A stretch of 39,451 nt of DNA from a phage. The stretch lies in sequence record PZ445455.1. One strand, written 5' to 3'. The position numbers were made by a program, and so were the translations under genes. This document shows positions 5,433 through 10,760 of this stretch, in pieces. The first letter of the stretch is position 1; every line of letters begins with the position of its first letter. Under the pieces are notes generated by a model that was not told the origin of the DNA, did no database searches, and was given only the letters and a program-made list of their open reading frames with translations.

Positions 5433-8084
5433 ATGAACACGATTAACATCGCTAAGAACGACTTCTCTGACATCGAACTGGCTGCTATCCCGTTCAATAC
5501 TCTGGCTGACCACTATGGTGAGCGTTTAGCTCGCGAACAGTTGGCCCTTGAGCATGAGTCTTACGAAATGGGTGAAGCACGCTTCCGCAAGATGTTTGAG
5601 CGTCAACTTAAAGCTGGTGAGGTTGCGGATAACGCTGCCGCTAAGCCTCTCATTACTACACTACTCCCTAAGATGATTGCACGCATTAACGATTGGTTTG
5701 AGGAAGTGAAAGCTAAGCGCGGCAAACGCCCGACAGCCTTCCAGTTCCTGCAAGAAATCAAGCCGGAAGCTGTAGCGTACATCACCATTAAGACCACTCT
5801 GGCTTGCCTCACTAGCGTAGACAATACAACCGTTCAGGCTGTAGCGAGTGCAATCGGTCGAGCCATTGAGGATGAGGCGCGCTTCGGTCGTATCCGTGAC
5901 CTTGAAGCGAAGCACTTCAAGAAAAACGTTGAGGAACAGCTCAACAAGCGCGTGGGGCACGTCTACAAGAAAGCATTCATGCAAGTTGTCGAGGCTGACA
6001 TGCTCTCTAAGGGTCTACTAGGTGGCGAGGCGTGGTCTTCGTGGCACAAAGAGGACTCCATTCACGTTGGGGTGCGCTGCATTGAGATGCTCATTGAGTC
6101 AACTGGAATGGTTAGCTTACACCGCCAAAACGCTGGCGTAGTCGGTCAGGACTCTGAGACTATCGAACTCGCACCGGAATACGCTGAGGCTATCGCAACC
6201 CGTGCGGGTGCACTTGCTGGTATCTCTCCGATGTTCCAACCTTGCGTAGTTCCTCCTAAGCCGTGGACTGGCATTACAGGTGGTGGCTATTGGGCTAACG
6301 GTCGTCGTCCTCTGGCGCTGGTGCGTACCCACAGCAAGAAAGCACTGATGCGCTACGAAGATGTTTACATGCCTGAGGTATACAAGGCGATTAACATTGC
6401 ACAAAACACCGCATGGAAAATCAACAAGAAAGTCCTAGCGGTCGCCAACGTGATAACCAAATGGAAGCACTGCCCTGTAGAGGATATACCAGCGATTGAA
6501 CGTGAAGAACTCCCGATGAAACCGGAAGACATCGACACGAATCCGGAGGCTCTCACCGCGTGGAAACGTGCCGCTGCCGCTGTGTACCGTAAGGACAAGG
6601 CTCGAAAGTCTCGCCGTATCAGTCTTGAGTTCATGCTTGAGCAAGCCAACAAGTTCGCTAACCATAAGGCCATCTGGTTCCCTTACAACATGGACTGGCG
6701 CGGTCGCGTTTACGCTGTGTCAATGTTCAACCCGCAAGGTAACGATATGACCAAGGGCCTGCTGACGCTGGCGAAAGGTAAACCAATCGGTAAGGAAGGT
6801 TACTACTGGCTGAAAATCCACGGTGCAAACTGTGCTGGTGTCGATAAGGTTCCGTTCCCTGAGCGCATCAAGTTCATTGAGGAAAACCACGAGAACATCC
6901 TAGCGTGCGCTAAGTCTCCACTGGAGAACACTTGGTGGGCTGAGCAAGATTCTCCGTTCTGCTTCCTTGCGTTCTGCTTTGAGTACGCTGGGGTACAGCA
7001 CCACGGCTTAAGCTACAACTGCTCTCTTCCGCTTGCGTTCGATGGGTCTTGCTCTGGCATTCAGCACTTCTCCGCGATGCTCCGTGATGAGGTAGGTGGT
7101 CGTGCGGTTAACTTGCTGCCTAGTGAAACCGTTCAGGACATCTACGGGATTGTCGCTAAGAAAGTCAACGAGATTCTACAAGCAGATGCAATCAACGGGA
7201 CCGACAACGAAGTGGTTACCGTGACCGATGAGAACACTGGCGAAATCTCTGAGAAAGTCAAGCTGGGCACCAAGGCGCTGGCTGGTCAATGGCTTGCTTA
7301 CGGTGTTACTCGCAGCGTGACTAAGCGTTCAGTCATGACGCTGGCTTACGGGTCCAAAGAGTTCGGCTTTCGTCAACAAGTGCTGGAAGATACCATTCAG
7401 CCAGCTATCGATTCCGGCAAGGGTCTGATGTTCACTCAACCGAATCAGGCTGCTGGATACATGGCTAAACTGATTTGGGAAGCTGTGAGCGTGACGGTGG
7501 TAGCCGCTGTGGAGGCAATGAACTGGCTTAAGTCTGCCGCTAAGCTGCTGGCTGCTGAGGTCAAAGATAGGAAGACTGGAGAGATTCTGCGCAAGCGTTG
7601 CGCTGTACATTGGGTGACTCCTGATTCCTTCCCAGTTTGGCAAGAATACAAGAAGCCAATTCAGACTCGCTTGAACCTGATGTTCCTCGGTCAGTTCCGC
7701 TTACAGCCGACCATTAACACCAACAAAGATAGCGAGATTGACGCACACAAGCAGGAGTCCGGTATAGCACCCAATTATATACACAGTATGGACGCAAACC
7801 ACCTGCGACAAACCGTGGTGTGGGCTCATGAGAAGTATGGCATCGAGTCCTTCGCACTGATTCACGACTCCTTTGGGACAATTCCTGCTGATGCTGCCAA
7901 CCTGTTCAAAGCTGTGCGCGAAACTATGGTTGACACCTATGAGTCCTGTGATGTACTGGCTGACTTCTATGACCAGTTCGCTGACCAGTTGCATGAGTCT
8001 CAATTGGATAAAATGCCAGAACTTCCTGCTAAAGGTAACTTGAACCTCCAAGACATCCTTAAGTCAGACTTCGCGTTTGCGTAA
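5433..8084 (+). CDS. 1: Single-subunit DNA-dependent RNA polymerase (gp1)
   Basis: 883 aa, near-identical to T7 RNAP including specificity loop; matches T7-type promoters in the genome. Confidence 0.98.
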   Translation: MNTINIAKNDFSDIELAAIPFNTLADHYGERLAREQLALEHESYEMGEARFRKMFERQLKAGEVADNAAAKPLITTLLPKMIARINDWFEEVKAKRGKRPTAFQFLQEIKPEAVAYITIKTTLACLTSVDNTTVQAVASAIGRAIEDEARFGRIRDLEAKHFKKNVEEQLNKRVGHVYKKAFMQVVEADMLSKGLLGGEAWSSWHKEDSIHVGVRCIEMLIESTGMVSLHRQNAGVVGQDSETIELAPEYAEAIATRAGALAGISPMFQPCVVPPKPWTGITGGGYWANGRRPLALVRTHSKKALMRYEDVYMPEVYKAINIAQNTAWKINKKVLAVANVITKWKHCPVEDIPAIEREELPMKPEDIDTNPEALTAWKRAAAAVYRKDKARKSRRISLEFMLEQANKFANHKAIWFPYNMDWRGRVYAVSMFNPQGNDMTKGLLTLAKGKPIGKEGYYWLKIHGANCAGVDKVPFPERIKFIEENHENILACAKSPLENTWWAEQDSPFCFLAFCFEYAGVQHHGLSYNCSLPLAFDGSCSGIQHFSAMLRDEVGGRAVNLLPSETVQDIYGIVAKKVNEILQADAINGTDNEVVTVTDENTGEISEKVKLGTKALAGQWLAYGVTRSVTKRSVMTLAYGSKEFGFRQQVLEDTIQPAIDSGKGLMFTQPNQAAGYMAKLIWEAVSVTVVAAVEAMNWLKSAAKLLAAEVKDRKTGEILRKRCAVHWVTPDSFPVWQEYKKPIQTRLNLMFLGQFRLQPTINTNKDSEIDAHKQESGIAPNYIHSMDANHLRQTVVWAHEKYGIESFALIHDSFGTIPADAANLFKAVRETMVDTYESCDVLADFYDQFADQLHESQLDKMPELPAKGNLNLQDILKSDFAFA

Positions 8085-8399: not shown

Positions 8400-8657
8400 A
8401 TGGGACGTTTATACAGTGGGAACCTGAATGACTTCAAGGCTGCTTGCAACAGGCTCTACCAGTTAGACTTTGCTGTTATTTGTGATGAATGGTACGATGC
8501 TTACAAACGCCTTGCGTGTATGCGTCTACGTGTAGAGGACAGGGCTGGAAATCTTATTGATACCAATACGTTCTGTCACCACGATGAAGACGTCTTGTAC
8601 AATACGTGTACTGATTGGCTGAACCGGATGCACGACCAGTTGAAGGACTGGAAGTAA
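8400..8657 (+). CDS. 1.2: gp1.2 inhibitor of host dGTP triphosphohydrolase
   Basis: 85 aa starting MGRLYSGNL; matches T7 gp1.2; start chosen at internal ATG of the track ORF 8361..8657. Confidence 0.85.
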   Translation: MGRLYSGNLNDFKAACNRLYQLDFAVICDEWYDAYKRLACMRLRVEDRAGNLIDTNTFCHHDEDVLYNTCTDWLNRMHDQLKDWK

Positions 8658-8677
8658 TACGACTCAGTATAGGGACA
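8655..8677 (+). promoter_or_regulatory. Phage promoter phi1.3 (cagtata variant)
   Basis: taatacgactcagtatagggaca; TAA of gene 1.2 stop is part of the promoter. Confidence 0.85.
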
Positions 8678-8679
8678 AT

Positions 8680-8713
8680 GCTTAAGGTCGCTCTCTGAGT
8701 GGCCTTAGTCATT
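8680..8713 (+). promoter_or_regulatory. RNase III hairpin R1.3
   Basis: gcttaaggtcgctctctgagtggccttagtcatt. Confidence 0.6.
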
Positions 8714-8738
8714 CAACCAAAACATGGAGATAAACATT

Positions 8739-9755
8739 ATGATGAACATTAAGACCAACCCGTTTAAAGCAACGTCTTTCGTAGAGTCTGCCATTAAGAA
8801 GGCTCTTGATAACGCTGGGTATCTTATCGCCGACATTAAGTACGATGGTGTACGTGGGAACATCTGCGTAGACGATACTGCTAACAGTTGCTGGCTCTCT
8901 CGTGTATCTAAAACGATTCCGGCACTGGAGCACTTAAACGGATTCGATGTTCGCTGGAAGCGTCTGCTGAACGATGACCGTTGCTTCTACAAAGATGGCT
9001 TTATGCTCGATGGGGAACTCATGGTCAAGGGAGTAGACTTTAACACTGGGTCCGGCCTACTGCGTACCAAGTGGCTAAACAAGAAGAACTTTGAGTTCGA
9101 CGTTGGCGGTGTGCCACCACTTAAGGGGTCCAAGGTTGAGTTCGAGTTGGACACCAAACGTCTGAGTGTCCGACTGTACGCTATCCTCCCGCTTCACATC
9201 GTGGAGTCTGGGGAAGACCATGATGTCATGACGTTACTCATGCAGGAACACGTTAAGAACATGCTGCCTCTGCTACAGGAATACTTCCCTGAAATCGAAT
9301 GGCAAGCGGCTGAGTCTTACGAGGTTTACGACATGGTGGAACTACAGCAACTGTACGAGAAGAAGCGAGCGGAAGGCCATGAGGGTCTCATTGTGAAAGA
9401 CCCGATGTGCATCTACAAGCGCGGTAAGAAGTCCGGCTGGTTCAAGCTCAAGCCAGAGAACGAGGCTGATGGTATCATCCAAGGTGTGAATTGGGGTACA
9501 GAAGGTCTAGCCAACGAAGGTAAGGTAATAGGGTTCACGGTGCTTCTTGAGACAGGGCGTATTGTAGACGCTAACAATATCTCTCGCGCCTTAATGGACG
9601 AATTTACCGCCAACGTTAAGGAGCACGGGGAGGACTACTATAACGGATGGTCTTGCCAAGTAAATTATATGGAGGAAACAAAAGATGGAAGCCTTAGACA
9701 CCCTTCCTTCACCTGCTTCCGAGGGGTTGAGGGAAATCGTTGCGAAAAGATTTAA
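8739..9755 (+). CDS. 1.3: ATP-dependent DNA ligase (gp1.3)
   Basis: MMNIKTNPFKA...; contains KYDGVRG adenylation motif; 338 aa versus 359 in T7 (C-terminal region differs); start at ATG after ggag RBS, not the upstream in-frame ATG at 8724. Confidence 0.93.
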   Translation: MMNIKTNPFKATSFVESAIKKALDNAGYLIADIKYDGVRGNICVDDTANSCWLSRVSKTIPALEHLNGFDVRWKRLLNDDRCFYKDGFMLDGELMVKGVDFNTGSGLLRTKWLNKKNFEFDVGGVPPLKGSKVEFELDTKRLSVRLYAILPLHIVESGEDHDVMTLLMQEHVKNMLPLLQEYFPEIEWQAAESYEVYDMVELQQLYEKKRAEGHEGLIVKDPMCIYKRGKKSGWFKLKPENEADGIIQGVNWGTEGLANEGKVIGFTVLLETGRIVDANNISRALMDEFTANVKEHGEDYYNGWSCQVNYMEETKDGSLRHPSFTCFRGVEGNRCEKI

Positions 9756-10176
9756 GGTTAACAGGGAGGCTCCTAGCGGCCTCTCTCGCGTTAGCGGGAA
9801 ACCAGTCGGCTACAAGAAGTCTAGCGGATACTGGAATATCCACGTTTCCGTTAACAACAAGTCTCACCATCTACTTGCGCATAGGGTTATATGGGAACTC
9901 ACTTACGGAGAGATACCCTCTGGAATGCAGATAGACCACATTAATAGAGACAGGTCTGATAATCGCATAGAGAACCTTAGACTCGTTACTATGACAGAGA
10001 ATATGCACAATAAGGGAGACTACGTGACCAACACTACCGGTCATAAATACGTCATGTATCGTAAAGATAGGAATGCGTACATATTCAGAATAAAGCGATT
10101 TGGCAAACTACATACTTCATACCACAAGACTTTGGATGAGGCTGTGGAGGCCAAGCGGTTGTTCCTTAATCAGTAA
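9685..10176 (+). CDS. HNH endonuclease (putative homing endonuclease)
   Basis: 163 aa; HNH motif HHLLAHRVIWELTYGEIPSGMQIDHINRDRSDNRIENLRLVTMTENMHNK; ggagg RBS 9 nt upstream; overlaps ligase 3' end by 71 nt in another frame; stop abuts TE. Confidence 0.85.
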   Translation: MEALDTLPSPASEGLREIVAKRFKVNREAPSGLSRVSGKPVGYKKSSGYWNIHVSVNNKSHHLLAHRVIWELTYGEIPSGMQIDHINRDRSDNRIENLRLVTMTENMHNKGDYVTNTTGHKYVMYRKDRNAYIFRIKRFGKLHTSYHKTLDEAVEAKRLFLNQ

Positions 10177-10214
10177 CCACACTGGCTCACCTTCGGGTGG
10201 GCCTTTCTGCGTTT
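10177..10214 (+). terminator. Early terminator TE (host RNAP, rho-independent)
   Basis: ccacactggctcaccttcgggtgggcctttctgcgttt: GC stem-loop plus U-rich tract; same sequence as T7 TE. Confidence 0.85.
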
Positions 10215-10236
10215 AATACGACTCACTAAAGGAGGT
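10214..10236 (+). promoter_or_regulatory. Phage promoter phi1.5 (cactaaagg class II variant)
   Basis: taatacgactcactaaaggaggt. Confidence 0.85.
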
Positions 10237-10243
10237 ACACACC

Positions 10244-10333
10244 ATGATGTACTTAATGCCATTACTCATTGTCATCATAGGATGCCTTGCGCTCCACTAC
10301 AGCGATGACGATATGCCAGATGGTCACGCTTGA
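10244..10333 (+). CDS. 1.5: gp1.5 mini-protein (29 aa)
   Basis: MMYLMPLLIVIIGCLALHYSDDDMPDGHA; matches T7 gp1.5 with 2 substitutions. Confidence 0.75.
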   Translation: MMYLMPLLIVIIGCLALHYSDDDMPDGHA

Positions 10334-10357
10334 CAACACCCGCTAAGGAGACACCCT

Positions 10358-10474
10358 ATGATGTACTTAATGCCATTACTGATGCTATTCTTGGTGTCAT
10401 TACTCATTCTCATCCCTGTATATGCTGTACTACGTGATGATGACGATGATGACACACAAGATGACCATGCTTAA
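10358..10474 (+). CDS. Diverged tandem paralog of gp1.5 (38 aa, hydrophobic core + poly-Asp tail)
   Basis: MMYLMPLLMLFLVSLLILIPVYAVLRDDDDDDTQDDHA; first 23 nt identical to gene 1.5; own aaggagacac RBS; stop TAA inside phi1.6. Confidence 0.6.
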   Translation: MMYLMPLLMLFLVSLLILIPVYAVLRDDDDDDTQDDHA

Positions 10475-10494
10475 TACGACTCACTAAAGGAGAC
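10472..10494 (+). promoter_or_regulatory. Phage promoter phi1.6
   Basis: taatacgactcactaaaggagac. Confidence 0.85.
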
Positions 10495-10499
10495 ACTAT

Positions 10500-10760
10500 A
10501 TGTTTCGACTTCATTACAACAAAAGCATTAAGAATTTCACGGTTCGCCGTGCTGACCGTTCAATCGTATGTGCGAGCGAACGCCGAGCTAAATTACCTCT
10601 TATTGGTAACACAGTTCCTCTGGCACCGAGCGTCCACATCATTATCACCCGTGGTGACTTTGAGAAAGCAATAGACAAGAAACGTCCGGTTCTTAGTGTG
10701 GCAGTGACCCGCTTCCCGTTCGTCCGTCTGTTACTCAAACGTATCAAGGAGGTGTTCTGA
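10500..10760 (+). CDS. 1.6: gp1.6
   Basis: 86 aa [31 protein letters not shown]...; near-identical to T7 gp1.6. Confidence 0.9.

Follow-up and report, generated by a model that had tools for sequence, protein, structure and literature searches.

An apparently ordinary short-loop DNA ligase gene and a putative mobile HNH gene that most likely starts inside its conserved C-terminal motif in a T7-like phage

The window analyzed here, the whole 39,451-nucleotide stretch of sequence record PZ445455.1, is the genome of a T7-like (Teseptimavirus-type) phage, which carries an 883-aa T7-type RNA polymerase gene at 5433-8084 and recognisable T7 class II promoters and early terminator TE. We examined gene 1.3, encoding an ATP-dependent DNA ligase, together with the HNH endonuclease gene that overlaps its 3' end (Table 1). 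The locus as a whole is very probably best explained as an ordinary short-loop ligase gene joined to a mobile HNH gene of the phiYeO3-12 gene 1.45 type, the latter starting inside a conserved ligase motif. An initial annotation, made from the sequence alone, had viewed the ligase as shortened and rewritten in response to a recent HNH insertion, and its claims are taken up below with the results that bear on them.

By sequence, the ligase falls squarely within the T7 gp1.3 family. It scored 113.8 bits against Pfam family PF01068 (DNA_ligase_A_M; cut-off 26.2) and 130.4 bits against PF17879 (DNA_ligase_C, the T7-type C-terminal OB domain; cut-off 25), and it matched phrog_114 (E=1e-90) and the T7 ligase structure chain 1A0I (E=1.1e-180, in two stretches flanking a loop). 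BLASTP against T7 gp1.3 (359 aa, V01146) gave 79% identity over the full length with 21 gap positions; this result and the open reading frame (ORF) translation bear out the lengths of 338 aa for the window and 359 aa for T7 given initially. The two enzymes share gene position, the adenylation plus OB domain layout, the KYDG motif (K34-Y-D-G) and SLRHPSF (from S318), but the window ligase lacks 19 loop residues and 2 mid-protein residues of gp1.3, is diverged over residues 113-145 and ends in nine other residues. Both motifs lie in invariant columns of a 15-sequence alignment, and all residues invariant in this alignment are kept in the window ligase. We take K-x-D-G to contain the motif I lysine and ..LRHP.F.. 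to be motif VI, following the names used for the nucleotidyltransferase superfamily. Two in-frame ATGs are present at 8724 and 8739 (MEINIMMNIK...), the upstream one giving a protein of 343 aa. The ATG at 8739 (MMNIK... start) has GGAG 7 nt upstream and is the start annotated in T7, pO111 and SYGE1; the equivalent of 8724 is used in the JeanTinguely record (343 aa). Overall, gene 1.3 of the window is an ordinary mosaic allele that appears to be functional.

The 21 residues had been treated as one C-terminal change. The BLASTP alignment instead divides them between a mid-protein segment, which is 2 residues shorter than in T7 (gap at residue 121), and a single OB-domain loop, which is 19 residues shorter. 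DNA identity to T7 falls to 53-66% over the mid-protein segment, compared with 90-100% in its flanks, and the window version of residues 113-145 also occurs in JeanTinguely, pO111, SYGE1 and EmilieLinder. The 19-residue gap sits between H296 and G297 (nt ~9627), between the conserved sequences ..ALMDEFT and GW(A/S)CQ..YMEET, such that the stretch before YMEET.DGSLRHPSF reads ..VKEH-GEDYYNGWSCQ.. in the window and ..VKEATLSQWGFFSPYGIGDNDACTINPYDGWACQ.. in T7. The HMMER match to 1A0I breaks at the same loop, and nothing in the window corresponds to chain residues 298-320. The sequence before YMEET does therefore differ from that of T7, as first noted, but it has not been replaced or rewritten: the difference is one of loop length, and the extra residues are those of T7. 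In a partial AF2 model, used with moderate confidence only, the variable stretch comprises the end of helix 283-296 and loop 297-304, before strand 305-309; the model, built from the 15-sequence alignment, had a mean pLDDT of 44, but 68-89 around the loop, and was too poor for a fold search, so that only the OB-domain secondary structure near the loop was taken from it. Only the last nine ligase codons (VEGNRCEKI, 9726-9752), which the initial annotation did not pick out, belong specifically to the HNH cassette.

To place the window loop among its relatives, we compared the length of the EFT-to-GW loop at 103 distinct Studiervirinae ligase loci, a sample made up of GenBank loci and 80 IMG/VR loci fetched with patterns independent of the loop (GFMLDGE, LMVKGVD). 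Loop length ranged from 11 to 42 aa; 12 aa was the commonest length (38 loci), and the 31-aa form of T7 was rare (four loci). This sample was collected as an independent check on the 120 protein clusters nearest to the window ligase, a set biased toward the query, in which VKEHGEDYYNGW or a close variant was present in about 100 clusters and the T7-type ATLSQWGFFSPYGIGDNDACTINP insert in only six. The T3-like, phiA1122, Vi06, KP32, SYGE1, pO111 and JeanTinguely ligases all have the same 12-aa loop (VKEHGEDYYNGW or a near variant) with minor substitutions only. The C-terminal form found in the window is, in other words, the common form in T7-group ligases, and sequence comparison indicates that the 12-aa loop is the most frequent of many length variants, with T7 as the outlier in an indel-prone loop. 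The consequence for ligase biology is small, in that the window enzyme is typical and the textbook reference, T7, is the outlier in a hypervariable loop, and length differences from T7 gp1.3 should not be taken as derived features.

Some ligases carry larger inserts at this position. A 42-aa Cys- and His-rich insert with a CX3C...CX3C pattern was seen in some IMG/VR ligases (e.g., HTMCDNGCQMSKDVGMDNHSCAGKCAYDQHPSNNP), and other ligases have a 24-aa loop insert with two Cys residues; loop inserts overall were found at loci L038, L049, L056, L067, L074, L077 and L081. Judged from their sequences, the Cys-bearing inserts may be metal-binding modules.

According to the initial annotation, recent acquisition of the HNH gene would have damaged or constrained the ligase C-terminus, and the segment before YMEET would then have been shortened and rewritten in compensation. 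The ligase is indeed 21 aa shorter than that of T7 and differs from it just upstream of the overlap, and short loops are enriched among loci with the HNH gene (HNH+): loops of 11-12 aa occurred at 25 of 27 HNH+ loci in the pooled sample, and the 12-aa class comprised 19/27 HNH+ loci compared with 19/76 loci lacking the gene (HNH-; Fisher p=5e-5, related loci being treated as independent in this and later tests). However, we do not read this enrichment as linkage because it is confounded by lineage. The long-loop loci belong mostly to one clade, named FDKW after its ligase tail FDKWRG, of which one metagenome supplied a large share, and this clade is set apart from the HNH+ Kayfunavirus ligases across the entire OB domain. 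The 12-aa loop is also found in phages without the HNH gene (SYGE1, phiA1122, Vi06 and T3-like loci), and longer loops are found in HNH-bearing P483 (23 aa) and P1338 (17 aa). Being found whether or not the HNH gene is present, the short form represents neither a rewrite nor compensation. The possibility that the short loop travels with the HNH gene by co-conversion was rejected on the same grounds, namely the difference from the FDKW clade across the OB domain and the counter-examples in both directions. Recent acquisition is likewise opposed by the distribution of the overlap, which is the same 71 nt at 27/27 HNH+ loci from at least five genera whose HNH proteins are as little as 43% identical to that of the window (43-62%); a feature shared so widely across genera argues against a recent, locally compensated event, and the last nine ligase codons alone are cassette-specific. 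We regard damage followed by compensation as very unlikely.

The neighboring gene belongs, on homology, to a known and widespread mobile gene family of the T7 group, in which it is a divergent member of the phiYeO3-12 gene 1.45/KP32 gp9 group. Its 163-aa product scored 82 bits against PF13392 (HNH_3; E=2e-23, cut-off 24.8, residues 64-107) and matched phrog_99 (E=3e-45), the profile match starting at residue 25. The HNH_3 motif DH...N...N/H (DHINRDRSDNRIENLRLVTMTENMHN) is intact, and its DH(85)..N(97)..N/H columns are invariant in a 3-sequence alignment; a comparison with PDB sequences gave no match at E<=0.1. Family size was judged by tblastn against phage genomes rather than by the word-indexed protein search, which returned two clusters only. 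The tblastn search found matches in 1,677 of 50,697 phage records, the best ~60 of which all lie at the 3' end of a ligase gene (annotated, e.g., as "HNH endonuclease" and "DNA ligase") and include phiYeO3-12 gene 1.45 and KP32 gene 9. Identity to phiYeO3-12 gp1.45 was 48% over residues 1-162 (E=2e-36), that to GenBank phages in general did not exceed 62%, and that to the proteins of the other HNH+ loci was 43-62%. A literature search on phiYeO3-12 gene 1.45 and the gp1.45 HNH protein found no relevant open-access paper. One Logan cluster was 99% identical: it contains a 163-aa protein with the same ATG and amino-acid-conservative differences only, and its 1-kb contig alone shares the exact ligase tail of the window, ..GNRCEKI. 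The 27 distinct HNH+ loci come from Teseptimavirus, Teetrevirus, Przondovirus, Kayfunavirus, Ningirsuvirus and unclassified phages, and all 27 have an intact HNH ORF of 153-165 aa beginning at the same position within the ligase gene.

The end of the ligase gene is dual-coding with the HNH gene in the other frame, as had been noted, over a length that we measured as 71 nt including the ligase stop rather than 70. Every one of the 27 HNH+ loci has an overlap of exactly this length, beginning with ATG at 25 loci and GTG at two (pO111 and a Logan contig). In the window, the ATG at 9685 is made by the ligase Asp-Gly codons GAT-GG of ..ET(K/P)DGSLRHPSF, and a GGAGG Shine-Dalgarno-like sequence is supplied by the Met-Glu codons of YMEET. 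GGAGG was present at 24/24 HNH+ and 66/76 HNH- loci; its frequency in the latter means that it largely pre-exists in the ligase gene. The Asp codon at HNH- loci was GAT in 37 cases and GAC in 39, which produces an ATG at 37/76 (49%), whereas a start codon was present at the first 24/24 HNH+ loci (Fisher p=1.2e-6) and the remaining three HNH+ loci have one as well. Among the HNH+ loci, this is the only in-frame start that is conserved. T7-type loci lacking the gene have a stop nine codons into the +1 frame. The family-conserved HNH core starts at about residue 23-25, and F23 is encoded by a TTT (9751-9753) that straddles the end of the last ligase codon and the first base of the ligase TAA stop; in homologues from other genomic settings, an independent Met stands at a position matching one of residues ~8-19 of the window protein. 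These comparisons make ATG 9685 the most likely translation start. The core of the element would then abut the ligase stop codon, with a leader of ~16-22 residues translated in the +1 frame across the end of the ligase gene, which would also lend its Shine-Dalgarno sequence and ATG, and the mobile gene would be using signals that pre-exist inside the most conserved ligase motif, both of which are present in about half of the HNH-less phages.

Alternatively, the true HNH start could lie downstream, e.g., at TTG 9727 or beyond the ligase stop, in which case the overlap would be a functionless ORF extension with no true dual coding. The PHROG profile begins only at residue 25, free-standing homologues lack the leader, the leader peptide shows little conservation of sequence, ligase wobble sites are unconstrained, and later starts are given in several GenBank records; TTG 9727 is also present in the window. 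Yet none of the in-frame ATG, GTG and TTG codons further downstream is conserved: the Leu aligned with TTG 9727 (the L of the conserved E-x-L-R) is preceded by A/G at most HNH+ loci (e.g., ligase-frame ACT GAG -> CTG) and is therefore not encoded by TTG, and starts after the ligase stop would lose the conserved N-terminal motif F/Y-x-Y/V-N..PSG. Moreover, ATG or GTG stands at -71 at 27/27 HNH+ loci but at 49% of HNH- loci, and no HNH+ locus has a stop codon interrupting the frame that opens there. A downstream start is thus improbable. Several considerations nevertheless count against the reading that we prefer, in which a mobile gene starts at ATG 9685 beside an ordinary surface-loop variant of the ligase. 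The support for this start comes from comparative data only; treating related loci as independent overstates the p-values, and the ATG could come from one inherited cassette. Annotators disagree on the start, with downstream starts chosen in CLB_P1, RDN8.1, Rambo and PE3-1, and little selection acts on the leader peptide, which might be dispensable. Finally, the location of the loop at the protein surface depends on a partial and poor AF2 model and on homology to 1A0I.

The initial annotation had proposed that dual coding constrains both proteins, and this claim was upheld in part. The last ligase residue is I or V at 26/27 HNH+ loci and M at 69/76 HNH- loci (p=6e-17). At 26/27 HNH+ loci, F or Y occupies HNH position 23, which only a last ligase codon of xTT or xTA permits; the lone HNH+ locus whose ligase ends in M has Cys there. 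The kept start codon and the exchange of M for I/V in the last ligase residue are thus in keeping with the proposal, but the codon-position analysis is not. Nucleotide diversity (pi) at ligase third positions, which are HNH second positions, was 0.44 in the overlap of HNH+ loci and 0.45 in the same stretch of HNH- loci, with control regions at 0.39-0.52, and no reduction of wobble-site diversity was seen relative to either. Suppression of synonymous change by dual coding was rejected on this basis. Because wobble diversity is not reduced, mutual constraint is light and the leader peptide nearly free to vary, constraint in the overlap being dominated by the ligase, including motif VI.

The boundaries of the element were mapped against SYGE1, the closest HNH-less relative, to which blastn homology stops at 9724 and restarts at 10173. 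The latter position immediately precedes the TAA that ends the HNH gene (10174-10176), and this TAA is aligned with the codon that terminates the ligase gene in SYGE1 and T7. Where an HNH-less ligase gene has its final 27 nt, the intervening segment puts a new ligase tail (VEGNRCEKI*) followed by the HNH body; the 1A0I chain sequence ends at ..FVMFR, and the replaced ligase residues lie beyond that entry. Compared with pO111, identity is 88-100% in the 3' half of the ligase gene and beyond TE, and the tail FTCFRGVEGNRSEKI is shared, but identity drops to 53-68% over 9780-10200 (the HNH body), so that the flanks are nearly the same in both phages and the HNH alleles differ between them. At its fixed site the gene is also patchily distributed, being present in pO111, JeanTinguely, PVN09 and the P0002/P0003 contigs and absent from SYGE1, EmilieLinder and T7. 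In addition, loci L020 and L022 (KP32-like IMG/VR contigs) and L040/L126, all scored as HNH-less, still contain the leader and the first 37-48 HNH codons; at L020, L022 and L040 the ligase tail is kept and the HNH core has suffered clean internal deletions of 293-367 nt. From their structure we take these loci to be remnants of element loss. Finally, the +1-frame ligase tail of phiA1122 (L007) is chimeric, being of the HNH type (METLDIPPSPAS) up to PSPAS and of the T7 type thereafter (..PRTTLKRRC), as would fit an earlier recombination or co-conversion event with its boundary in the overlap.

This pattern of gain, swap and loss is as expected of a free-standing homing endonuclease gene, and we consider the HNH gene a putative member of that class. 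In the mechanism that we propose, an HNH_3 gene of the 1.45 family, located between the ligase gene and TE, brings its own nine-codon ligase tail and is often gained, swapped and lost; homing itself, in which the endonuclease would cut ligase alleles without the HNH gene and the element would be copied in by repair, is proposed on the strength of the gene's family and its distribution. More tentatively, and with some doubt on our part, the element may have no translation signals of its own and use the Shine-Dalgarno sequence and ATG of the ligase, the ligase 3' end may be the cleavage target to which the element's own tail gives immunity, and the I/V versus M ends and the phiA1122 tail may be footprints of co-conversion. 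Homing endonuclease genes cycle through gain, decay and loss, and the HNH ORF of the window could in principle be a decaying, non-functional remnant of a selfish element whose imposed ligase tail is neutral baggage. The deletion remnants at L020, L022 and L040 and the rarity of the window allele would fit such a history, but the ORF has its full length of 163 aa, its HNH_3 motif is intact and scores far above the Pfam cut-off, a 99%-identical copy exists in another sample, and the ORF is intact at all 27 HNH+ loci. That the gene is such a remnant seems to us extremely improbable, and a mobile gene of the 1.45 type remains our preferred explanation.

Both genes belong to known kinds, and there is no new kind of system at the locus. 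Like the window gene, phiYeO3-12 gene 1.45 and KP32 gene 9 encode HNH_3 proteins of 153-165 aa, directly follow gene 1.3 and start at the same in-ligase ATG with a 71-nt overlap, but protein identity to the window product is only 43-48%. The position of TE also differs: a "putative early terminator TE" is annotated inside 1.45 of phiYeO3-12 just after the ligase stop (L142 1284-1299, corresponding to window 9768-9783), whereas the window has a T7-type TE after the HNH gene, and HNH expression relative to TE may therefore differ between phages. Free-standing homing endonuclease genes include the HNH genes 3.8 and 5.3 of T7 and the seg and mob genes of T4. These resemble the window gene in being small nuclease genes that are patchy among close relatives and lie beside conserved DNA-metabolism genes. 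The window gene appears to depart from them in lacking an intergenic start, as it would begin inside the conserved motif of its neighbor and rewrite that neighbor's last codons. The locus is thus a compact natural case of a mobile nuclease gene that starts inside a conserved motif of the adjacent gene and dictates its last codon, and it may prove useful as a simple model system for the evolution of overlaps and for homing in T7-group phages. The points of mild interest are the use of pre-existing motif VI signals as a start, the coupling of the last ligase codon to an HNH aromatic residue, and widespread mis-annotation in GenBank.

With respect to the last of these points, the start at -71 is annotated in phiYeO3-12, JeanTinguely and ViciousJeremy, and one at -35 in PVN09. 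The gene is truncated to ~80-120 aa in the records of RDN8.1, Rambo, PE3-1, CQ615, KKP 3708 and CLB_P1, and it is unannotated in those of pO111, P1338, phiHAO1-1, W2B, EFA-1 and Zappy. The full ORF of 153-165 aa is intact at every mis-annotated locus analyzed, EFA-1 (L153) and Zappy (L154) lying outside the ORF analysis. Gene callers seem to avoid the 71-nt overlap, with the result that the HNH gene is systematically mis-annotated.

Table 1. Features of the ligase-HNH region of the window (positions in PZ445455.1).
Feature	Position	Strand	Description	Basis
Gene 1.3, ATP-dependent DNA ligase	8739..9755	+	338 aa	ORF; Pfam, 1A0I match, T7 gp1.3 identity
Mid-protein variable segment	9075..9173	+	Residues 113-145; 2 aa shorter than T7, gap at residue 121, strongly diverged	
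OB-domain variable loop	9609..9644	+	A291-N302, 12 aa (T7: 31 aa)	Alignments, loop-length census
GGAGG, Shine-Dalgarno-like	9671..9675	+	Met-Glu codons of ligase YMEET, 9 nt upstream of ATG 9685	
Dual-coding overlap	9685..9755	+	71 nt including ligase stop; ligase D316-I338 + stop (including motif VI, SLRHPSF); HNH residues 1-24, +1 frame	
HNH_3 endonuclease gene, phiYeO3-12 gene 1.45/KP32 gp9 type	9685..10176	+	163 aa	Pfam, PHROG, homologues at ligase 3' end
Segment without counterpart in SYGE1	9725..10172	+	448 nt; HNH body preceded by a new 9-codon ligase tail (VEGNRCEKI*); replaces the final 27 nt of an HNH-less ligase gene	
Early terminator TE hairpin	10177..10213	+	ccacactggctcaccttcgggtgggcctttctgcgttt	97.7% identical to T7 stretch with annotated TE
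T7-type class II promoter, phi1.5 equivalent	10214..10235	+	TAATACGACTCACTAAAGGAGG	Sequence; aligns to T7 phi1.5 region

Downstream of the HNH gene, TE was assigned by homology to T7, as a simple terminator and promoter scan of 8500-10600 flagged no terminator, TE included. The phi1.5-type promoter follows TE directly in the window, and SYGE1 is arranged alike; T7 gene 1.4, which occupies ~167 nt between TE and phi1.5 in T7 (L003:1558-1724), has no counterpart within window positions 10177-10243. Beyond the promoter are two tandem gene-1.5-like small ORFs (10244-10333 and 10358-10474), both starting MMYLMPLL, of which the first encodes 29 aa (MMYLMPLLIVIIGCLALHYSDDDMPDGHA) and the second 38 aa with an Asp-rich tail. 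Two small ORFs are found at this place in JeanTinguely and EmilieLinder as well.

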